From a virus (taxonomy: Duplodnaviria; Heunggongvirae; Uroviricota; Caudoviricetes), in the IMG/VR virus record IMGVR_UViG_2585427725_000018: DNA of 35,588 nucleotides. The stretch is one strand, 5' to 3'. Positions 773-35,588 of the stretch are shown in pieces (position 1 is the stretch's first letter; each line of letters opens with the position of its first letter). The notes beneath the pieces are model-generated. The model saw only the letters and a list, made by a program, of their open reading frames with translations. It did no database searches and had not been told where the DNA came from. A program made the translations under genes and the position numbers.

Positions 773-913
773 TTACTGCTTACACTGTAAGAACGCCGCA
801 AACTCCGCTCCCCAAAAGCTCATCCGTATTTCACACAGCGAACCGTGCAGCATCCAGATGATGAGGATTACCGTCACGCAGAACGTGATGGCCGTAAGCG
901 ATTTTTGCGACAT
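773..913 (-). CDS. hok: Hok/Gef-family type I toxin (small membrane peptide)
   Basis: 46 aa ORF not on the track (below its size cut-off): MSQKSLTAITFCVTVILIIWMLHGSLCEIRMSFWGAEFAAFLQCKQ. Single TM helix followed by the SLCEIR and E-x-AAF(L/M) motifs characteristic of Hok/Gef/HokA-E peptides. AAGGAG lies 8 nt upstream of the ATG; a 9 bp GC hairpin (742-763) sits in the 3' UTR. Confidence 0.65.
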   Translation of the reverse strand: MSQKSLTAITFCVTVILIIWMLHGSLCEIRMSFWGAEFAAFLQCKQ

Positions 914-9890: not shown

Positions 9891-10454
9891 ATGCTGAATA
9901 ATAGAGATATGAATATTAATGAACTTAAAGATTGTATTCACTATGAAGTAATCGGTAGCGAGCGTCCTTTCTCCTGGCGAAAGGCAATTGTTCGCGCAAT
10001 AAAACATAGAAGAGTTCGTTATTTATTTTGGTGGCGCATAGCCAAATACCTTTTTGATAAAGGCGGATACTGTCGGAAGATTGCGGGGAAAATAGAACGT
10101 TTCATTCTTGATAAATATAATGTAACAGTCCCTTTAACTGTAAATATAGGGAAAGGCTTTGATATTTCTTATCTCAACAGTGTTGTTATCGGTCACAAAG
10201 TAACAATCGGTGAAAATTGTTCAATAAAACCAAGGGTAACTATTGGGCTGCGTGGTGATTTTAATGATATGGATATTGTTATAGGACATAATGTGACCAT
10301 TGGTTGTAATGCCACCATTCTTGGTGGCAAAGTGCGTATAGGAAACAATGTCACAATAGGTGCTCATGCATTGGTATTGCATGATATTCCTGATGATTCA
10401 ACATTCATCACTAAATTTCAGTCTGAAGTTATCTGCTCGTCCTCCCGCACATAA
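9891..10454 (+). CDS. Hexapeptide-repeat (left-handed beta-helix) acetyltransferase, CysE/WcaB-like
   Basis: Tandem hexapeptide repeats ([51 protein letters not shown]) after an alpha-helical N-terminal region ([14 protein letters not shown]). AT-rich. Start uncertain (9891 or 9909), neither with a strong SD. 3' end overlaps the convergent gene G by 37 bp. Confidence 0.7.
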
Positions 10455-22391: not shown

Positions 22392-24143
22392 ATGATTCAG
22401 GACGCTTTTGTGCGCCAGCGTGCGCGGCAACTTTACTGGCAGGGTTATCCGCCCGCAGAAATATCACGTCTGATGGGAATAAACCCGAACACGATTTATG
22501 CGTGGAAAAAACGCGACCAGTGGGATGAAACGCCACCCGTGCAGCGTGTCACGCAGTCCATCGATGCGCGCCTCATCCAGCTCACTGAAAAACAGAATAA
22601 AACAGGTGGTGACTTTAAGGAAATAGACCTGCTGACCCGGCAGCTTAAAAAGCTGCATGATGGCCAGCCGGATGTGATGGCCGCAGGAAAGAAAGGCCGG
22701 GCGAAAAAACTCAAAAATCATTTCACGCCGGAACAGATTGCCGCACTGCGGGAAAAAATCATCAGCAGGCTGGAGTGGCATCAGCGGGGCTGGTTTGACT
22801 CCCTGACCCTTTGCAGGGAAGCCGGGATACGTAACAGGATGATCCTGAAATCCCGACAGATTGGGGCGACCTGGTATTTTGCACAGGAAGCACTGCTGAT
22901 GGCGCTGCGTGACGATGTGGCGCAACCTTACCAGCGTAACCAGATTTTTTTGTCTGCGTCGCGTCGTCAGGCGTTCCAGTTTAAAAGCATTATTCAGAAG
23001 GCCGCGGCTGAAGTTGATGTGGAGCTGAAAGGGGGCGATAAAATCATCCTCTCCAACGGCGCAGAGCTGCATTTTCTCGGCACATCTGCTGCGTCGGCAC
23101 AGTCCTATACGGGCAATTTTTATTTTGATGAATTTTTCTGGGTCAGTCGCTTTGCTGAACTGCGCAAGGTGGCTGGCGCTATGGCAACCCTCAGCGGACT
23201 GCGGCGCACCTACTTCTCCACGCCATCCACCGAAACGCACGAGGCATACGCCTACTGGAACGGCGACCGCTGGAACGAGAAAAAGGCCTCGCATAAACGC
23301 CAGCGTTTTTCTGTGGACTGGAAAACGCTGCATAACGGGCTTATCTGCCCTGACCGGACGTGGCGGCAAATTGTCACGCTGGAAGATGTGGTTAATCACG
23401 GCTGGAAACACACCGATATCGACGAAATTCGTGATGAAAACACCGAAGACGAGTTCCTCAATCTCTATATGTGTGAGTTTGTCCGCGAAGGGGAATCGGC
23501 ATTTAACCTGAATATCCTGATTGGCTGCGGTGTTGACGGATACGACGACTGGAAAGACTGGAAACCTTTTGCTCCCCGCCCGATGGGGAATCGTCCGGTA
23601 TGGATTGGGTATGACGCAAACGGCAGCAGTGGAAACGGCGACAGCGGCGCAGTGTCCGTGGTGGTTCCTCCGGCTGTTCCTGGTGGCCGTTTTCGAACGG
23701 TGGAGACGCGACGCGTTCAGGGGCTGGAGTTTGAAGAACAGGCCAGAGTAATTGAAGAGTTCACGTATCGCTACAACGTGGAACACATCGGCATTGATGT
23801 GACGGGCGGGAACGGGGAGGCTGTTTATCAGATAGTGAAACGGTTTTTCCCTGCTGCTATTCCGTACACCTTCACGCTGTCATCAAAACGGTCGCTGGTA
23901 CTGAAAATGCTGCAAATAATGCGTGCCGGGCGGTGGGAATACGATCGCGCCGAACGCGAGCTGGTCGCGGCCTTTAACGCCGTGCGTAAGGTGAAAACAC
24001 CGGGCGGCTTTATCACTTACGAAACGGACCGCGCGAGGGGGATCAGCCACGGCGACCTTGCGTGGGCAACCATGCTTGCTGTCATTAACGAACCGATTGG
24101 CGGCGAAGGAGAAAACGAGCGTTTCACGGTTATGGAGTTCTGA
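22392..24143 (+). CDS. P: Terminase ATPase (large) subunit P
   Basis: 583 aa; N-terminal HTH-like segment (EISRLMGINPNTIYAWKKRDQWDE), gpP-like throughout. Confidence 0.95.
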   Translation: MIQDAFVRQRARQLYWQGYPPAEISRLMGINPNTIYAWKKRDQWDETPPVQRVTQSIDARLIQLTEKQNKTGGDFKEIDLLTRQLKKLHDGQPDVMAAGKKGRAKKLKNHFTPEQIAALREKIISRLEWHQRGWFDSLTLCREAGIRNRMILKSRQIGATWYFAQEALLMALRDDVAQPYQRNQIFLSASRRQAFQFKSIIQKAAAEVDVELKGGDKIILSNGAELHFLGTSAASAQSYTGNFYFDEFFWVSRFAELRKVAGAMATLSGLRRTYFSTPSTETHEAYAYWNGDRWNEKKASHKRQRFSVDWKTLHNGLICPDRTWRQIVTLEDVVNHGWKHTDIDEIRDENTEDEFLNLYMCEFVREGESAFNLNILIGCGVDGYDDWKDWKPFAPRPMGNRPVWIGYDANGSSGNGDSGAVSVVVPPAVPGGRFRTVETRRVQGLEFEEQARVIEEFTYRYNVEHIGIDVTGGNGEAVYQIVKRFFPAAIPYTFTLSSKRSLVLKMLQIMRAGRWEYDRAERELVAAFNAVRKVKTPGGFITYETDRARGISHGDLAWATMLAVINEPIGGEGENERFTVMEF

Positions 24144-25189
24144 TGAGCAGAAAAAATAAAAAAGTGCGCATGAGTTCACGCATTGATCTCGCTGATGCGC
24201 TCAGGAAAGAATCGTCGCTCAGTGCATTCACATTTGATGGTCCTTATCGCCTGACCGGGCATGATTTGCTGGACAATATGTACTGTGCTGATAACGGGCG
24301 GTGGTATGAAACCCCGGTGGACTGGTACGGTCTGGCAAGAGCTGCCCGGCAAACGTCCTGGCATCAGTCTGCGCTTTACTTTAAGCGCAATGTATTGCTC
24401 GGTTGCTATATTCCGCACCCGCTGCTTTCCCGGCAGGATTTCTCGGCGCTGGCGCTGGACTGGTTTGTGTTCGGTAACGCATTCCTTGAGCTTCGAAGCA
24501 ATATGCTCGGCGAACCGCTTAAATTACGGCACGCCCTGGCGAAATACATGCGACGCGGAAGCGATCTTGAATCATGGTGGTATGTGCAGGATGGTAAGGA
24601 CGCGTTTCAGTTTCGCCCTGGCAAAGTGTGCCACCTGATGAATCCTGACATTAACCAGGAAATCTACGGCATGCCGGAATATCTCGGCGCATTACTCTCG
24701 GCCAGCCTGTCTCATTCGGCGGACATGTTCAGAAAACTGTATTACGACAACGGATCCCACGCCGGGTGCATCATCTACATCGGTGCAGCGCAGGTAAACC
24801 GCGAAAGCATGGACTCCCTGAAAGAAACGCTACAGGGTGCGCGTGGTGGCGGTGCGTTTAAAAACGTGCTCATTCATGCGCCCAACGGGGGCAAAGAGGG
24901 GGTGCAAATTTTGCCGTTCCAGCAGATCACCGCAAAGGATGAGTTCATGAATGTTAAGGCGGCATCCCGTGATGATGTGCTGGCTGCGCACCGCGTTCCG
25001 CCGCAACTGATGGGGGCGATGCCGGGTGAAAAAAGTGCGTTTGGTGATGTGGAGAAGGCCGCGCGGGTTTACGCAATTAACGAGCTGATGCCCGTCATGG
25101 AGGCCATGAAGCACATCAATGACTGGCTTGGCGAAGAGGTGATCCGCTTTAACCCTTACGCACTGTTAGACACCCAGCCCACATCCTGA
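24143..25189 (+). CDS. Q: Portal protein Q
   Basis: 348 aa; start overlaps the P stop (TGATG); gpQ-like. Confidence 0.95.
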   Translation: MSRKNKKVRMSSRIDLADALRKESSLSAFTFDGPYRLTGHDLLDNMYCADNGRWYETPVDWYGLARAARQTSWHQSALYFKRNVLLGCYIPHPLLSRQDFSALALDWFVFGNAFLELRSNMLGEPLKLRHALAKYMRRGSDLESWWYVQDGKDAFQFRPGKVCHLMNPDINQEIYGMPEYLGALLSASLSHSADMFRKLYYDNGSHAGCIIYIGAAQVNRESMDSLKETLQGARGGGAFKNVLIHAPNGGKEGVQILPFQQITAKDEFMNVKAASRDDVLAAHRVPPQLMGAMPGEKSAFGDVEKAARVYAINELMPVMEAMKHINDWLGEEVIRFNPYALLDTQPTS

Positions 25190-25726: not shown

Positions 25727-26269
25727 TTACATCGCAGGACTGATGCGTTCTGTCCTCGTGTTTCTCCTGCCACATGCTTTTCCGCCAGCCTTTATGATGG
25801 CTCTTTCAACATCCCGCTCGTATCGCAAGGGCTGAAATACGTCATTAATGAAATATTCGCTTATGTCCGGAAGCGATACTGCAAAATTATTTGTTTGTTG
25901 CGCCGTCCTGCTATGCAGCAAAGCGGCATGCTTTAATGCGTCCTGTGCTTTCTGGAATTTAAGTGCATAGTCAGTGGCGATTTTTTCCAGTTCAGCGATT
26001 CGGTTGTCTTTGGTTTCCAGCCAATCAAGTAGCGCCAATACTTCAGGATCCCCGACATCCAACACTGTTACGCGTGATTTTTCATAATGTTCGTCAGCAA
26101 GAGTTCGGCCAATTTTGAAATCTCCATCATCACCATAACCGGAGCAGGCATAAACAACCTGTGCTCCAGATATTCGCTGAATTGACATTTCCTCGCCGCA
26201 AATAGGGCATTTCGGTACTGGCACAGGTGAATAACGTTCACGTAATGCCTGATAGTTGATTTCGCTCAT
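25727..26269 (-). CDS. Ead/Ea22-like prophage protein with N-terminal zinc-ribbon-like motif
   Basis: 180 aa. N-terminus MSEINYQALRE... and an LALLDWLE coiled-coil segment resemble Ea22-like proteins as I recall them; CPICGEE...YACSGYG cysteine pairs. AAGGAG RBS. Confidence 0.5.
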   Translation of the reverse strand: MSEINYQALRERYSPVPVPKCPICGEEMSIQRISGAQVVYACSGYGDDGDFKIGRTLADEHYEKSRVTVLDVGDPEVLALLDWLETKDNRIAELEKIATDYALKFQKAQDALKHAALLHSRTAQQTNNFAVSLPDISEYFINDVFQPLRYERDVERAIIKAGGKACGRRNTRTERISPAM

Positions 26270-26332
26270 TAAGTCGTTCTCCTTGTTTATGTTCTGAGGT
26301 GGAGAGCAGGGCGAACTCGCCCTGATGTTGTG

Positions 26333-26644
26333 TTATTCAGGAAATAACGCCCGGATATTTCCGGCCATCTGACTGGTTATCTGTGCGGTTGATACTGGCT
26401 GTGATGCGGGGCGTTCTGTCCTGGTTTGTGTCACTGATAACGCTTCATCACCAGCCCATGCAGCCAGTCGATAAGCCTCAGCCGGATTCATTTTCAGAAG
26501 TGCCAGCCCGGCCAGAAAAGCCACGCGTTGGCCGCTTTTGCGGGCTTCTGGTGTAAGGCTGTCCAGCCAGGCGCATGCTTCTCCTTCGTTCTTGACGGCG
26601 GTGGGCTTCAGATAGAAACTTATCCGTCTGGTTGGAGTCGTCAT
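26333..26644 (-). CDS. parR: ParR-like centromere-binding protein
   Basis: About 103 aa. RISFYLKP...AWLDSLTPEARKSGQRVAFLAGLALL...NIRALFPE parallels R1 ParR (RTIAFKLNP...LDSIPQGERSRLNRAALTAGLALY...ILRSLFPKE). AAGGAG RBS; sits directly after parM. Confidence 0.7.
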   Translation of the reverse strand: MTTPTRRISFYLKPTAVKNEGEACAWLDSLTPEARKSGQRVAFLAGLALLKMNPAEAYRLAAWAGDEALSVTQTRTERPASQPVSTAQITSQMAGNIRALFPE

Positions 26645-26648
26645 TGGT

Positions 26649-27608
26649 TTACTCCTTGTCCATTGCGTACAGCCCATTAACCAGAGCAAACTGTGGCACC
26701 CCGTCCGCGATGAAAGTCGCATTAACTCCGCAGGCTTCGCGGATAGCGGGTGCCACAATCTCCGCCCCTCCACCGACAACCATCCCCCGCCCGTAACCCG
26801 AAAAACCCGCCAGCGCGCGGATCACGCGTTGTTTCAGTGTTTCTTCCTTTTCACGAATTACCGCCATCAGGCTGGCGTAATGCGCGTCATTGTGGATGTG
26901 CTGGCGCAGCCAGGCTTCATCATGGCGATGTTCGATAATGGTATTGGCGATGTGGTGACTGGTGCGCATACCGTTAGTGGCCATCACCGACAGTACGGCA
27001 TCGGCCATCAGAGAAACGCCCACGTGTGGATCGCAAAACACCTGGCTGATACCTGCCAGTTGCCCCTGAACCTTTGCCACATCCAGCGTGGTTCCGCCCA
27101 AATCCACAATCAGCAGGGATTCAAACGGACTCATGTCAGCCAGTGCCTTAAAGCCAGCCGGAATGGATTCAGGCATAACCCGTACGTTACGGATAGTGAA
27201 TGCTTCGCCGTTCTGGTACTCCACCAGGCGCATGACGTTCGCTTTTTTGCGGTTGATGTTGGCCATGTCCGGCTGTGCGTTTGTATCGAAATACTCGCTC
27301 AGTGGCAGGGTGACAACCACATCCACTTCCTGTGGTGTGATGCCTGATTTGACCAGCGCGTGATGAATGGCAATTATATTCACATCGCTGTACTGGTATT
27401 GCGTGTCGGTCGTCTGGACAAAGCGATCGCTGACCGGATCAAAACCATAGCGCACGCCATCAAGCATGTAGTTCGCGGGCTGCGTGCCACCGAACGGCGC
27501 AGACCATTCCGACTTGAAGCTGTTCGGGCTGATGGCGTTGCGGCGTTCGCCGTTCTCAGTCCATGCCAGCTTGATGTTGGTGGAGCCGTCGTCGATACAA
27601 ATTTTCAT
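26649..27608 (-). CDS. parM: ParM / StbA actin-like segregation ATPase
   Basis: 319 aa. MKICIDDGSTNIKLAW...ISPNSFK.EW...QYSDVNI.A.HHAL..SG...EVD.V.T.PL.E......QP...NI.RKKAN...TI..V.VMPESIPAG...SLLI.DLGGTTLD...V.G.L.GIS...GVSL......VIGGGAE: collinear and highly similar to R1 ParM by my recollection. Confidence 0.9.
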   Translation of the reverse strand: MKICIDDGSTNIKLAWTENGERRNAISPNSFKSEWSAPFGGTQPANYMLDGVRYGFDPVSDRFVQTTDTQYQYSDVNIIAIHHALVKSGITPQEVDVVVTLPLSEYFDTNAQPDMANINRKKANVMRLVEYQNGEAFTIRNVRVMPESIPAGFKALADMSPFESLLIVDLGGTTLDVAKVQGQLAGISQVFCDPHVGVSLMADAVLSVMATNGMRTSHHIANTIIEHRHDEAWLRQHIHNDAHYASLMAVIREKEETLKQRVIRALAGFSGYGRGMVVGGGAEIVAPAIREACGVNATFIADGVPQFALVNGLYAMDKE

Positions 27609-27684
27609 GTCGCTTTTCCTTATGTTGATTAATTAATCGGTTACAGGATTTTTAAATCCCGCTTTTGCCTGTTTTGTGCGCGCT

Positions 27685-30507
27685 TCATATATCGCGGCAC
27701 GTTTTTTGCTCATTTACGGGATTTGTGAGTCCCGTTTCTGTCTGTTTTTTGTTTCCACTGGTCAGGCTACCCCGCAGCAGGTCTGCTTTGCGGTGGGCGC
27801 GTTCAGTGGTTTCACTGATTCTTTGTGCGTGCTCTGCGTCACGGATGGCGCGCAGCATGTCAGAAAGCACGGTAACGGGGGTTTTCATGGTGTTCTGGTC
27901 CTGCTGAAGTGTGGATGCCAGGTGTGCGGCGGCTTCGGGGTCTGATGCCCCCAGCTGTTCCAGATAGCTGGCGACCGGGTTATGGCGGATCTCCGTGCTG
28001 CTTACGCCGTGATTACGGCTCAGGCGCTGCCAGAGTTGCGTGATTCGGCTGTCCGGGCGGGTATCTGGTTTGCGTACAATTTCAAATCCCTGCGGTGCAA
28101 TGATGCTGCCGTCAACGTACAGACTGCCGCCCCGTAACAGGTGCTGCATCTGCTGTTCACCGATATGCAGGCCGAGAGATTCAGCAGACTCCCGCCATTC
28201 TTTAGCGAGTAACTCGTGGTTATCAGGCAAAGGCCGTGGCTGTTTGCGGCTCTGTGTCCAGTTCTGCATTTCATCACTGCTGTTTTTTACCTGTTTGTCA
28301 CGAAGCGAACGCATCAGCGCCCGGCGTTCGTGCCGTTTCAGTGAACGCATCCATTCGTTCACTTCAACGCCGTCAGGGAGCTGCGGCCACGGTGCTGGCC
28401 GTTCTTCCGGCTGTTCTGTCCCGTTGTTGTCCGTTTCCTGTACACGGGGACAGTTATTGCCACGAGTCCAAGGGGCGGCAGGGCCGCCCTGAAGGTCAAA
28501 ACCATTTTCGTGGGTGCTGTCTTCCGCTTCCGGTTTACGTCTTACCAGCTTCCAGTTATCCGGGTGCGTGCACACACGGGAGGATTCCCCGATGAGTGGC
28601 GACCAGATCCCGTAAATCTGTACACTCTGTTCGCCGTAATCGTTCAGCTCATCTGCGAGGTCGTAGGCTGTGCGAATCAGGTAGTCCTTGCGCGGAACAA
28701 GTACGCCACCCTGTTTTTCAATGTAGGTGGCAAAACACCCGGCATCAGCGGCAGCAAGAACCGCATCCATTGCGTCATCCTTCAGCCGTTGCGGGCCCTC
28801 CGGGTTGCGTGCCATCTGGCTGGCAAGGCGGCGGAGTTCACGCCACACCTGACGGGAGGGAATGCCAAAGAACTGGAACTGGCGGACCCGGTGAAGGCGC
28901 GCCCAGCCGATGGCGCGCTCCACGCTCTCGGCCATTGATTTTCCTGTTTCGTGGTCAACGCGTGGCTTGCCCGTTTTCGGGTCGATGCCATCCACGGCGC
29001 GGCTGTCCAGGTTCTTTCCGATGTAGGTGGCGATGTAGCTGGTTGGCGTGCCTTTTGAGCCGTCTACATACTCCGCCTTAAAGCGCGGAGTAATATCATC
29101 GCCCAGCTCGTGACGATCTTCCTGAATGGCAATATCGCGGGTGTGGGACACAATGGTGTCGATTTCTTCCGGATGGGCAAAGACCATCATATGCCAGTGC
29201 ACGGTTCCGTCATGGTGAGGCTCCACCGTGCGGATGCCATACCAGCGCAGGCCGTCGCGGTTCAGTTTTTTGCGGACCGCCGCAAAAAACGTGTTAACCA
29301 GGTAATCGCTGGAGTCGCGCATGGTGGCCCCGTTCCATTTGGGGTTCGGATGACCGTTCTCCGTTGTTGCGTGGTATTTTGACGGGCAGGTGACAGTCAG
29401 AAACACCGCTCTGTCGCCACGGGCTTCGGCCAGAAGTTCCAGTCCCTTCATGGTGGCCATCATTTCTGCCTTACGGTGAACCGGGTTACTTACTCCCGCG
29501 TAATACACTGTCTCGAGATCAATCGTGAACCCGTCTTCATTTTCCAGCATGAAACTTTTCAGGAAATCGCGTGTTTTCTCGCGCTGTGCGCGAAACTCGC
29601 TTAACGCGTCCTGGCTCAGATAGGGTGATGTTTTTCTGGAAACCAGACAGGCGGCGCGGAGTTGTTCTTCTCTCCACTCGCAACGTAACAGCCACAGTTT
29701 GCGTTTCCACCATTCCGCACAGGTCAGGCGAAGGATTGCGCCCGGCAGCAGCTCCGTGTCCGGTTCGTTCCTCCGGTCTTTGTCTGTTGTCAGTGCGTCA
29801 TAATGTGGAGGCATGGCGTGCAGGTGTAACGCCATGCGGGCCAGCATCTGATACGCCTTCAGCGTTACATCCATGGTCAGTTCGCCATCAGTCGCGCCAA
29901 AGCCATCGCAGAGTTTTTCGAAGGTGCTGCTGAACATCGCCGCCGTCATGGTGGCCAGCGTCTGTATCTGGTGCTTGTTGAGCTGCGGCAGGTAAAGCAA
30001 ATCATCCAGGCGTTCGCGTCCGGCAAGGGAGCGATAACCCGGTGTCAGCCAGCGGTGGTCGGTGCGGTCCAGACGTTCGAATATTTTGCGCAGGGTTCCG
30101 CGCGCGTAGCGTTCAGCCTGCCAGCTCTTTTTGCCTTTCCGGCGATCGACTTCCTGTTTTTTGCGCAGGAAGGAGAGGTGGCGAATAAGCGGATCGCGCA
30201 GATAGGACGGCAGCAGGCGCAGCGAGGCCATGGCTTCATCCACCGCGCCGCGTGCCTGTTTTCTGGCGTCTCCTGCCAGTGTGATGGTTTTGTCCTGTTT
30301 TTCCTGTGCATCCAGGCTTTTATTAATCAGGTTGCCCAGCGGCGTGGCGGAGAACGCCGCATCAGCCATTTCCTGGCGGCGCTCGTTCTCTGCCCGGTAG
30401 GCATCCAGCCAGGAGGAAAGCGCAGATTCAGGAACGGGGATCCCCGTTCCTTCACGTCCCACTGCGTGGCGCGGTTGTTGCCAGTCCCTGATGTACTCTG
30501 CCGTCAT
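27685..30507 (-). CDS. A: Replication initiation protein A (rolling-circle nicking protein)
   Basis: Conserved gpA blocks (VFLTVTCPSKYH, GIRTVEPHHDGTVHWHMM, YIATYIGKN). 940 aa as read from the track start; the true start is uncertain. Confidence 0.8.
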   Translation of the reverse strand: MTAEYIRDWQQPRHAVGREGTGIPVPESALSSWLDAYRAENERRQEMADAAFSATPLGNLINKSLDAQEKQDKTITLAGDARKQARGAVDEAMASLRLLPSYLRDPLIRHLSFLRKKQEVDRRKGKKSWQAERYARGTLRKIFERLDRTDHRWLTPGYRSLAGRERLDDLLYLPQLNKHQIQTLATMTAAMFSSTFEKLCDGFGATDGELTMDVTLKAYQMLARMALHLHAMPPHYDALTTDKDRRNEPDTELLPGAILRLTCAEWWKRKLWLLRCEWREEQLRAACLVSRKTSPYLSQDALSEFRAQREKTRDFLKSFMLENEDGFTIDLETVYYAGVSNPVHRKAEMMATMKGLELLAEARGDRAVFLTVTCPSKYHATTENGHPNPKWNGATMRDSSDYLVNTFFAAVRKKLNRDGLRWYGIRTVEPHHDGTVHWHMMVFAHPEEIDTIVSHTRDIAIQEDRHELGDDITPRFKAEYVDGSKGTPTSYIATYIGKNLDSRAVDGIDPKTGKPRVDHETGKSMAESVERAIGWARLHRVRQFQFFGIPSRQVWRELRRLASQMARNPEGPQRLKDDAMDAVLAAADAGCFATYIEKQGGVLVPRKDYLIRTAYDLADELNDYGEQSVQIYGIWSPLIGESSRVCTHPDNWKLVRRKPEAEDSTHENGFDLQGGPAAPWTRGNNCPRVQETDNNGTEQPEERPAPWPQLPDGVEVNEWMRSLKRHERRALMRSLRDKQVKNSSDEMQNWTQSRKQPRPLPDNHELLAKEWRESAESLGLHIGEQQMQHLLRGGSLYVDGSIIAPQGFEIVRKPDTRPDSRITQLWQRLSRNHGVSSTEIRHNPVASYLEQLGASDPEAAAHLASTLQQDQNTMKTPVTVLSDMLRAIRDAEHAQRISETTERAHRKADLLRGSLTSGNKKQTETGLTNPVNEQKTCRDI

Positions 30508-30513
30508 AGTGAT

Positions 30514-30879
30514 TTACTTCGTCATGCCATTCAGGGTGTCGCGGCAGACGGCAGCCAGCCGCTGAATTTCCAGCACGGTGTCTTCTGTGTCGGCATGGCG
30601 ATGTGTGATGCGGATGCTGTCGGCAATCACATCGACGATTGCAGAGGATGGGCGCTGGTAAATGCCAATAACGGACGGGGTGCCACCTTCAATGCGGTAA
30701 AGCCTGTAATTTCCCTCGTGGCTGTCAATCATGTAGCGACCATCAATAACAATCTTTCCGTCAGCGAGCTGCGGTACAGGCAGGGATTTCAGGTACATGT
30801 CATAACGATCACGCACGCGAGCGGCAAGATCACGTTCTGTGTTGAGCAGGTATTCAAGAAAGTCGTTGGCGAGAATCAT
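30514..30879 (-). CDS. Hypothetical early-operon protein
   Basis: 121 aa ORF with AAGAGGA RBS, immediately upstream of A; no family recognised. Confidence 0.55.
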   Translation of the reverse strand: MILANDFLEYLLNTERDLAARVRDRYDMYLKSLPVPQLADGKIVIDGRYMIDSHEGNYRLYRIEGGTPSVIGIYQRPSSAIVDVIADSIRITHRHADTEDTVLEIQRLAAVCRDTLNGMTK

Positions 30880-30951
30880 TGCGGCAATCCTCTTGTTACA
30901 GATGTGCGAAGGCCTCCCGCCGCAAGGTGCAGGAAAGGCCCGGAACAGGAA

Positions 30952-31182
30952 TTAATGGAGTTTGTTTTGCTGCTGGATGAGCTGTTGAAGCTCGCGCAGA
31001 TCATCCGCCAGATAGCTGAAAACAGCGGATGAATAGAGGTTTGAAAGTTCGCAGCTACGCTCATGCAGCATATTGATGTGCATGATTTTAGCGACGCGGA
31101 ATGCGCGGGAAAGTCTGCGGTTGATTTCAGTCTGGATGTGACGACGCTCCGCGATAGTGCGGTGCTGTTTGCGGTTTGCCAT
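30952..31182 (-). CDS. Hypothetical small basic early-operon protein
   Basis: 76 aa, Arg-rich N-terminus, AAGAGG RBS; no family recognised. Confidence 0.5.
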   Translation of the reverse strand: MANRKQHRTIAERRHIQTEINRRLSRAFRVAKIMHINMLHERSCELSNLYSSAVFSYLADDLRELQQLIQQQNKLH

Positions 31183-31358
31183 GATATGTGGCCTCTTGTA
31201 GTAAGTTGTGAAAACTCACCATCCAGAGCTGCGAAACTGTGGGTGGCGAGACGTACGAGGTTCGCAGTACCGGCTACAAGAGATCCCGGCCCGACCGAAG
31301 TCGGCCCCGTACGCCCCGCCATAATTCTGACGCGAAAAAAACGTGGCAATACAGTACG

Positions 31359-31382
31359 CACAAAAAAACCGCTGGCGCGGTT
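31359..31382 (-). terminator. Possible intrinsic terminator inside the early region
   Basis: aaccgc (4 nt loop) gcggtt, followed on the minus strand by T7. Short stem, so a weak call. Confidence 0.35.
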
Positions 31383-31504
31383 GTGCGCTCTTGTAGTCAG
31401 CAGGCTGCGAAACCCGGCACCCGTTTTATGAGGTGCAGCGGAAATGTAACCTGACTGATTGCGGCATGGCAAGCGGTTTTTTTGTGTGTGCATGCTCTGG
31501 TTTC

Positions 31505-34532: not shown

Positions 34533-34598
34533 CCCTTTATTATTCTTACGTTTTACAAACTGGAAATGTCTTTCCTCGTTTCACCGGAGGGCTTGCCA

Positions 34599-35588
34599 AT
34601 GGCAATTAAAGCGCTCGATGGTGGACGGTATAAAGTGGATGTTAGACCGCGTGGCCGAAGTGGACGTCGGATTCAGCGGATTTTTAAGAAAAAGGCAGAT
34701 GCAGTGGCCTTTGAGCGTTATGTTCTCAGCCACATGCACGATAAGGAATGGCTTGAAAAGCCAACAGAGCAACGTCATCTCTCAGATCTGCTTCCGTTAT
34801 GGTGGGAATTGGGTGGACGCAATAAGCCATATGCTAACGGCGTTCTAACCAGGTTGAAAAAAATCATCAAAGAAATGAATGATCCAAGGGTTAGCCAGAT
34901 TAATGCTCGTTTCATGGCCGCTTATCGAAGCTCCCGTTTATCCTTGGGAGTAAAAGAGTCTACTGTTCGGCGTGATGAGTCGGATCTCGGAGGAATGTTT
35001 ACACTCCTGGCAAATGCCGGGGAATTTCACGGAGAAAATCCGCTCCGCGCCCTCCCCTCTTTGAAACGAAAATCACCCGAAATGACGTATCTCACCACGG
35101 AAGAAATCGCCAAATTACTGGATGCAGTAAGCGGTGATGCCCGGCGGATTACGCTACTTTGTCTCAGTACTGGGGCGAGATGGGGAGAAGCGAAAAATCT
35201 GCGCGCGGAACACATCATCAATAATCGCGTGACGTTTAACAAAACTAAAAACGGAAAAGTTCGAATTATTCCTGTCTCTGATGAAGTTGTTAGTGAGATC
35301 AAAACAAAGAAATCCGGCCTTTTGTTTGACGTCAATTATGAGGAATATCGCAAGGTGCTTCGCAGTGTTAAGCCAGACCTACCAAAAGGACAGGCTGTAC
35401 ATGTTCTACGCCATACCTTTGCTGCTCACTTTATGATTAATGGAGGAAATATACTTACGCTCCAGCGAATTATGGGGCACGCCACGATCCAGCAAACTAT
35501 GACCTATGCGCACCTCGCTCCTGATTTCCTCCAGGATGCAATTTCACTTAATCCGTTAAAAGGAGGCATCCACATTTCATCCACATAA
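34599..35588 (+). CDS. int: Tyrosine integrase
   Basis: MAIKALDGGRYKVDVRPRGRSGRRI...LLCLSTGARWGEA...HVLRHTFAAHFMINGG...TLQRIMGHATIQQTMTYAHLAPDFLQDAISLNPL is highly similar to P2 Int. The stop codon is the last three bases of the window. Confidence 0.9.
   Translation: MAIKALDGGRYKVDVRPRGRSGRRIQRIFKKKADAVAFERYVLSHMHDKEWLEKPTEQRHLSDLLPLWWELGGRNKPYANGVLTRLKKIIKEMNDPRVSQINARFMAAYRSSRLSLGVKESTVRRDESDLGGMFTLLANAGEFHGENPLRALPSLKRKSPEMTYLTTEEIAKLLDAVSGDARRITLLCLSTGARWGEAKNLRAEHIINNRVTFNKTKNGKVRIIPVSDEVVSEIKTKKSGLLFDVNYEEYRKVLRSVKPDLPKGQAVHVLRHTFAAHFMINGGNILTLQRIMGHATIQQTMTYAHLAPDFLQDAISLNPLKGGIHISST

Follow-up and report, generated by a model that had tools for sequence, protein, structure and literature searches.

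An R1-type parM-parR partition module in the replication region of P88-like prophages of the P2 family

The type II partition locus ParMRC (parA/stb) of R1/R100 and pVR50A consists of a gene for an actin-fold ATPase (parM), the gene of a small adaptor directly downstream of it (parR) and a cis-acting site (parC). A cassette of this kind is described here from the IMG/VR virus record IMGVR_UViG_2585427725_000018 (Caudoviricetes), a stretch of 35,588 nucleotides (nt) referred to below as the window. The whole window corresponds to a P2-family prophage, drawn in reverse of the usual P2 map, and its parM-parR pair has the replication gene A (product gpA) on one side and the portal gene on the other, the prophage being P88-like (Xuanwuvirus, Peduoviridae). 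The R1-type pair is genuine and intact, and sequence comparison indicates that one lineage of P2-like temperate phages has long carried the module as a fixed component of its replication region. About even confidence is placed in its being a functional type II segregation module, which would stabilise or distribute the transient circular, gpA-replicated form of the phage after infection or induction.

The resemblance to ParMRC of R1 extends to the order of the two genes, to a ParM that shares 46% identity with R1 ParM along its entire length, to a ParR that belongs to Plasmid_stab_B and ends in a motif aligning with the C-terminus of R1 ParR, and to cis sites directly upstream of parM, where the upstream strand is A/C-rich. 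The differences lie in the carrier, which is an integrated P2-like prophage and not a plasmid, and in the site, since parC of the R1 type is an A/C-rich array of 11-bp iterons whereas the phage has two 20-bp palindromes 73 bp apart, the distal one inside the coding end of gene A and with no separate promoter recognised. The phage ParR is also shorter and carries a hypervariable linker.

A second system for comparison is srpMRC of the SXT/R391 integrative and conjugative elements (ICEs), a type II, actin-type partition locus whose function has been shown experimentally (Carraro et al. 2015, PMC4489591). These elements are usually chromosomal and undergo rolling-circle (HUH-type) replication when excised, the srpMRC centromere, located directly ahead of the ATPase gene, comprises no more than four repeats, direct or inverted, and a toxin-antitoxin system is present as well, both it and srpMRC reducing loss of the element (PMC4489591). 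The phage locus likewise combines a partition locus in a chromosomal element with a rolling-circle initiator, a site of few repeats and a toxin gene, hok-like in this case. However, SrpM and SrpR are distantly related to ParM and ParR, SrpR being without a recognisable ParR domain, while the phage pair are orthodox family members; and the function of srpMRC has been demonstrated in its host ICE, while the phage cassette is known here from sequence.

Among phages, the P1-like phage D6 (91 kb) also encodes a StbA/ParM protein, 47% identical to the ParM of the window. P1-like phages such as D6 replicate as plasmids, whereas the element described here, a 35-kb prophage with an integrase gene, is found on chromosomes. 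The AlpC/AlpA/alpS system of the Corynebacterium prophage CGP3 includes an actin-like protein and a DNA-binding adaptor which act on phage DNA after induction (PMC4446434, PMC5539076). AlpC belongs to another family of actin-like proteins and another host phylum, and its reported role is in replication and transport of viral DNA and not in inheritance.

The same cassette is found in P88/Xuanwuvirus, in phiSM and in the P2-like prophages of O157:H7 and ST131 at 94-99.5% DNA identity and in a shared gpA-parM-parR-cargo-portal order, the differences being confined to the cargo after parR and to the linker allele of ParR. Records of P88-like phages already name the gene products ParM or partition protein. 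The original prediction, made from the window alone, had taken P2-like phages to stand outside described phage-plasmid work; P88 was in fact flagged in the phage-plasmid census of Pfeifer et al. 2021, which suggested 'episomal and integrative states' (PMC7969092), and Rousset 2022 noted the cassette and speculated on an episomal state. The presence of the cassette is already known in substance. To this are added here the linkage of parMR to gpA, a phage-specific ParM clade, a two-palindrome candidate centromere over the gpA stop codon, the allele structure of ParR and a replicon census that speaks against stable maintenance as a plasmid.

The parM-parR module and its boundaries

As predicted, gene A is followed on the minus strand by parM, parR and an Ea22-like gene (Table 1). 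ParM matched the Pfam families StbA_N (E=1.6e-81) and ParM C-terminal domain (E=5e-67), and its best match among the solved structures was R1 ParM (1mwk, E=1.6e-91, residues 2-316). BLASTP aligned it with R1 ParM over 318 residues with 46% identity, 67% positives and two gaps; the earlier description of the protein as very similar to R1 ParM holds for the full-length homology, but the identity is moderate. It has the phosphate-1, phosphate-2, catalytic Glu and adenosine motifs of an actin-fold ATPase, and DDGSTNIK, MPESIPAG (with E148), DLGGTT (with D170) and GGGAE are intact in the alignments, so that the nucleotide-binding motifs carry none of the inactivating mutations for which a check had been proposed. 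Values of dN/dS (nonsynonymous over synonymous substitution rates) for parM against ten relatives, the near-identical L002 excepted, were 0.05-0.30, and five of the six pairs of greatest divergence (dS >= 0.07) gave 0.05-0.14, a pattern indicative of purifying selection. The open reading frames (ORFs) are intact in nearly all the loci examined. The only match to a sigma-70-like promoter in the region lies antisense inside parM (27349-27377, plus strand; TTGACC-17-AATTAT); an antisense RNA spanning the parM start is conceivable, though unsupported.

The ATG of parR, preceded by GGAG, lies 5 nt past the parM stop, and the product is a small adaptor of the ParR/StbB family. Residues R6, F10, P14, R35, R40, G46, A48 and L49 of its N-terminal part are invariant with R1-type ParR. 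The protein is laid out as a conserved N-terminal DNA-binding part, a hypervariable linker and a conserved C-terminal N-I-x-x-L-F-P. The C-terminal motif, (K/G)NIxxLFP(E/K) in the sequences compared, is kept across alleles with unrelated linkers, and it can be aligned with KKNAMKLIN of R1 ParR and with pVR50A ParR, N96 being invariant. The C-terminal peptide of R1 ParR is its ParM-binding element. Searches with ParR gave no match among the solved structures and no family-level match above the cutoff in NCBIfam.

At least four ParR alleles (L004, L007, L008 and L010) were seen, in which the N-terminus and the last ~9 residues are kept and the linkers are unrelated. As the linkers vary inside the 3' half of parR (26333-26500), the boundary of the variable hotspot falls inside parR, which suggests, as far as sequences can tell, that parR is used as a flank in recombination. 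A GC-rich hairpin directly after parR marks the edge of the conserved module; its stem is kept and its loop changed in P88 and in the circular record pZ1323PEC0009-2, and in other loci sequence divergence starts at the hairpin or earlier.

The gpA type of the window was detected in 1321 E. coli genomes and parMR in 1278, both at >=80% coverage, with ~97% co-occurrence; thus, parMR and this gpA type are almost always together. Loci are similar up to the parR stop codon or up to a point in the 3' half of the gene, different genes follow in different phages, and therefore the place of the Ea22-like gene is the slot equivalent to tin/old of P2. The cassette itself had been assigned to that slot in the original prediction, but parMR is a conserved module between gpA and the slot, which starts at or inside the 3' end of parR. 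The Ea22-like ORF is replaced by other genes in P88, EC958, O157 and GF31, by HicAB in Serratia and by a KAP NTPase in Enterobacter, and it is an occupant of the cargo slot, outside the partition cassette. By these sequence comparisons parMR is classed as the constant flank of a variable slot, core to the lineage and not hotspot cargo. An anti-phage defence system of the P2 hotspot was rejected as an identity for the cassette, because a PADLOC search of ParM, ParR and the Ea22-like ORF gave no match to defence models and because parMR is constant and gpA-linked, not variable. In O157:H7 TW14359 (L007) the prophage is degraded, with an IS3 beside parR, a frameshifted tape-measure gene and rearranged tail genes; gpA, parM and parR are still intact despite this decay.

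A scan of the genome collection with the single ParM returned three near-identical loci, and the wider relatives came from a protein search. The ParMs of Plesiomonas (62% identical to that of the window), Hafnia (61%), Serratia (57%) and Enterobacter (53%) all lie in P2-like prophages, downstream of gpA either directly or after one or two small ORFs, and in all four loci parM is followed by a Plasmid_stab_B gene, variable cargo and the portal gene. Genuine plasmid ParMs were <=52% identical among the matches listed, one PLSDB record at 60-80% lying outside that listing; ParMs at 48-50% were found on large chromosomal contigs, in an ICE (Dickeya) and an integrated plasmid (Mangrovibacter). In the neighbour-joining tree the ParMs of the window, Hafnia and Plesiomonas formed a clade with a bootstrap of 100/100, and the wider P2-like group was recovered in 59/100 replicates. 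Since the nearest relatives share the P2-like context and are grouped by the ParM tree, the sequences point to an old acquisition retained through divergence of the phages and not to repeated recent capture. One further contig, labelled Vagococcus sp. WN89Y (L005), carries an enterobacterial ParM/gpA locus of 97% identity in a Firmicute-labelled assembly, probably through contamination or mislabelling.

Candidate ParR sites upstream of parM

The upstream palindromes mentioned in the original prediction are real. A repeat search revealed two 38-nt direct repeats, 73 nt apart, upstream of parM, each containing one 20-bp palindrome with the consensus ACGGGATT-N4-AATCCCGT. The pair straddles the gpA stop codon, palindrome 1 overlapping the last ~15 codons of gene A, so that the end of gpA is encoded by the palindrome sequence itself. 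Only these two matches to the palindrome occur in the whole window, against 0.16 expected by chance, and all ten related loci retain both. Although the tail of gpA is different in Plesiomonas, a related pair of sites there, 72 nt apart, is spaced from the parM ATG just as in the window; an analogous pair in Hafnia is ~71 nt apart, and in these two relatives the sites stand at about -128 and -55 from the ATG. Serratia and Enterobacter carry a different two-copy repeat at the equivalent place.

The exact palindrome was found in at least 120 IMG/VR contigs. Among the matches listed, 112 of 120 contigs had a ParM within 35-407 nt and 5 were cut at gpA. A hijacking of ParMR through the palindrome by P4-like satellites or other phages was considered and rejected, as the three listed contigs without gpA and ParM contained unrelated low-GC terminator hairpins.

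On this sequence pattern the two palindromes are likely to be ParR sites, the distal one being a candidate parC-like site and the proximal one a candidate operator or half of the centromere. An R1-like iteron array upstream of parM was also sought by a repeat search, a half-site scan and autocorrelation, and the two palindromes were all that these returned. Thus, instead of an array of direct iterons flanking a promoter, as in parC, there are four half-sites, forming a conserved cis site of non-R1 architecture. The corresponding upstream region of an R1-type plasmid, parsed by eye, yields two blocks, each of about five A/C-rich 11-mers, ten in all. A role of the palindromes as sense-strand terminators of gene A was rejected, since neither is followed by a U-tract on the sense strand. 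On the antisense (plus) strand the palindromes are terminator-like, each being followed by a T-rich run (27643-27678 and 27716-27751).

The leader between the proximal repeat and parM keeps its core, ATTAATCAA..ATAAGG, in the Plesiomonas and Hafnia relatives (L012 and L013). Simple scans detected neither a sense-strand terminator nor a sigma-70-like promoter in the gpA-parM interval, a weak indication that parMR is transcribed together with the early operon; in that case its products would be made when the phage is extrachromosomal and not in the quiescent lysogen. Proteome and transcriptome papers on O157:H7 yielded nothing specific to ParM or ParR.

Replicon census and the role of the module

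The census covered 5426 complete E. coli genomes. The parMR segment was present in 1307 of them (24%), including O157:H7 and ST131, and occupied 1455 places, 1453 chromosomal and 2 on plasmids. Since about a quarter of these genomes harbour a prophage of the P88-like family, the constant ParMR amounts to many chromosomal copies of a 'plasmid' partition system. The census shows neither a low-copy extrachromosomal carrier nor a prophage kept extrachromosomal in lysogens.

PLSDB gave seven matches, of which three were opened, the other four being records of 272 kb to 1.4 Mb. One of the three is a rearranged, IS26-bounded prophage fragment in the KPC-carrying IncC conjugative plasmid pC-Ec2-KPC (L141, NZ_MK439959.1); the fragment derives from an ST131-type P88-like prophage and includes gpA-parM-parR. 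Another is an unplaced linear Shigella contig. These two non-circular records were, for what they are, rejected as evidence for an episome. The third, pZ1323PEC0009-2 (L003, NZ_CP148288.1), is a complete, circular P88-like phage of 34,461 bp with an intact integrase; it is 99.9% identical, over the first 25 kb compared, to an integrated prophage of strain Z1323HEC0067 from the same study series. This single circular record could as well represent a phage genome that had been excised or was replicating. The only replication function recognised was gpA (Phage_GPA) of the early operon, and a domain search of the other early-region ORFs showed no plasmid Rep domain.

Stable episomal maintenance, the possibility raised in the original prediction, is therefore disfavoured by 1453 chromosomal places out of 1455 and by the three plasmid-database matches opened, which resolve into a fragment, an unplaced contig and one circle. 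Two further hints had been offered for it. The int stop at one edge of the window and the hok-like ORF near the other are both present; the former says nothing about an episome. The latter is possibly a second stabilising function: R1 has both parMR and hok/sok stability loci and the phage has homologues of both parMR and hok, a Hok/Gef gene being annotated in the circular copy too. An Rfam search found no Sok antisense RNA for the Hok/Gef ORF.

The stabilisation of a transient circle is favoured by analogy, since a gpA rolling circle, a ParMR with four half-sites and a Hok/Gef toxin correspond to the ingredients seen in the elements with srpMRC. Dimers of ParR would bind the two palindromes flanking the gpA stop, that is four half-sites, seven helical turns apart; the resulting small ParR-DNA complex would cap ParM filaments through the conserved C-terminal peptide of ParR, and the filaments would push apart the circular phage genomes made by gpA rolling-circle replication. 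The same binding would probably also limit transcription running on from gene A into parMR. The module would come into play at any time when the phage DNA is circular and extrachromosomal and its early operon is on, either after infection and before integration or upon excision or induction in cells that are still dividing, and the outcome would be less loss or less uneven inheritance of the element. Such a role, whose logic has been shown experimentally for srpMRC, does not point to a permanent plasmid lifestyle. Gene identities, intact motifs, selection, synteny, conserved sites and chromosomal location are the observed basis of this account; from them we infer that ParR binds the palindromes, what the filaments do, when the module is expressed and what the phage gains from it. 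An alternative raised in the original prediction, that ParMR positions phage DNA, comes close to it.

Several points weigh against this account. The literature searched holds no experiment on this cassette. Any benefit must be conditional, given that P2 and 186 thrive with no system of this kind. The candidate centromere has two palindromes where an R1-type parC has ~10 iterons, and therefore the site could be an operator only. Two sizeable protein clusters (P0010 and P0017) are made up of truncated parM variants, and frameshifted copies of parM or parR exist, which means that some hosts or lineages tolerate loss of parMR. Lastly, the promoter and terminator scans are weak evidence on expression timing.

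A cytoskeletal role confined to the lytic cycle is the strongest of the alternatives, though an unlikely one. ParM filaments would then position or spread the replicating circles to the benefit of replication or of the packaging of monomeric circles, with no role in inheritance. This would suit a cassette which ends the early replication operon with no terminator detected ahead of it, and whose ParM forms a deep, phage-specific lineage. It has a precedent in the prophage actin AlpC and its DNA adaptor AlpA (PMC4446434, PMC5539076). However, P2 and 186 replicate and package without ParMR, and the ParM of the window is an orthodox R1-family protein. The activity of R1-family ParM is the bipolar pushing of paired plasmids, which also counts against a purely lytic cytoskeleton.

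Improbable, on the census, is a facultative phage-plasmid, in which ParMR, together with hok, would keep the phage for many generations as a low-copy plasmid, for example in hosts whose attachment site (attB) is absent or occupied. Such a dual lifestyle would involve a gpA-replicated, ParMR-segregated and hok-guarded episome with a two-palindrome centromere in the end of its replication gene. The partition cassette is complete, the Hok/Gef gene is present and one complete circle of 34,461 bp has been deposited as a plasmid; the Burkholderia P2-like phage KS14 is reportedly a plasmid prophage. Pfeifer et al. 2021 and Rousset 2022 speculate along the same lines. Against it stand the near-total chromosomal location of the cassette, the capture or unplaced status of the other opened plasmid-database matches and the intact integrase of the window. 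The circular record, too, retains its integrase and is nearly identical to an integrated copy, and gpA of the lytic early operon is the only replication function recognised, no plasmid-type replicon having been seen.

A function other than partition is likewise doubtful, and marginally more so. ParR could act mainly as a regulator at the palindromes, or the pair could serve in conflicts, through plasmid incompatibility, exclusion or a place in the defence hotspot. The presence of two palindromes in place of an iteron array, the position of the cassette at the border of the P2 defence hotspot and the survival of intact parMR in the degraded O157:H7 prophage would agree with such roles. A pure repressor, however, would have no need of the ParM ATPase motifs and the C-terminal peptide of ParR, which are conserved under purifying selection, and the cassette forms the constant border of the hotspot and not its variable part, with no match in PADLOC; moreover, since the palindrome is distinct from R1-type iterons, the cassette is unlikely to cross-react with IncF plasmids. 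That the cassette is a non-functional relic of an old plasmid-phage recombination, as its frameshifted or truncated copies might suggest, is very improbable given dN/dS values well below 1, ORFs intact in nearly all loci examined and an arrangement retained across genera at 53-62% ParM identity.

If the module does stabilise a transient circle, temperate phages would join ICEs in using plasmid machinery while extrachromosomal, with effects on the efficiency of lysogenisation, on prophage loss and on the spread of the adjoining defence cargo. The two-palindrome site would offer a compact natural ParR site for asking how small a type II centromere can be. Should the episome reading hold instead, an abundant 'integrative' phage family would be a hidden phage-plasmid with a new minimal parC architecture.

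Other features of the prophage

Table 1. Positions of the parMR module, its candidate sites and other features in the window
Feature	Position	Strand	Remarks
Gene A (gpA)	27685-30507	-	Pfam Phage_GPA E=4.5e-131; 940 amino acids (aa), long form; rolling-circle replication initiator
Distal 38-nt repeat	27714-27751	-	Palindrome 1 at 27716-27735, ACGGGAyT-N4-AATCCCGT; inside gene A 3' end
gpA-parM spacer			76 nt, between gene A and parM
Proximal 38-nt repeat	27641-27678	-	Palindrome 2 at 27643-27662; in the gpA-parM intergenic region
Leader GATTAATTAATCAACATAAGGAAAAGCGAC	27609-27640	-	With parM ribosome-binding site; invariant in alignment of 11 loci
parM	26649-27608	-	319 aa; actin-like segregation ATPase
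parR	26333-26644	-	103 aa; adaptor; Pfam Plasmid_stab_B E=7.8e-23
GC-rich hairpin CAGGGCGAGTTCGCCCTG	26307-26324		Directly after parR; edge of conserved module
Ead/Ea22-like ORF	25727-26269	-	Pfam Ead_Ea22 E=1.7e-32
Portal and terminase genes	22392-25189	+	Based on annotated homologues
Integrase	34566-35588		Intact; ends at window edge
Hok/Gef-family toxin ORF	773-913	-	Pfam HOK_GEF E=3.7e-7, above cutoff; near ogr end

The nucleotide identity over the region is 99.5% to Xuanwuvirus P88_4B11 and 96% to phage P88, and the region is 93-97% identical to P88, to Citrobacter phage phiSM and to further P88-like phages that had been induced or isolated. The assignment to Xuanwuvirus follows from this identity and from P2-type synteny (int-C-cox...A / Q-P / O-N-M-L, tail genes, ogr), and Ogr, integrase and GPA domains were recognised in the window proteins. 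Homologues of gene A are annotated as 'replication endonuclease'. The Pfam GPA domain covers residues 179-503 of gpA only, the C-terminal ~430 residues (27685-29000) being without a recognised domain. Non-coding DNA of ~540 nt separates the Ea22-like ORF from the portal and terminase genes.

Two Rfam matches, to C4 antisense RNA (31239-31326, minus strand; 81 bits) and to the Hfq-binding RNA isrK (31362-31436, minus strand; 67 bits), both lie inside an Ash-family ORF (30876-31493), which belongs to the early region and precedes gene A by two genes. At the end of the prophage a small membrane protein with a zinc ribbon and a TM2 domain (Pfam TM2, E=5.5e-19) is encoded at 341-637 on the minus strand. 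Between ogr and a tail gene lies a low-GC island (1500-2700; 31-38% GC, against ~55% for the phage), which is likely to be a second cargo or defence slot; its ORFs at 1693-2097 and 2084-2650 on the minus strand are without a meaningful Pfam match. Another low-GC stretch, beside the tail-fibre genes, contains a hexapeptide-repeat acetyltransferase ORF (9891-10454, plus strand), whose homologues in related prophages are annotated as serine O-acetyltransferase or transferase.

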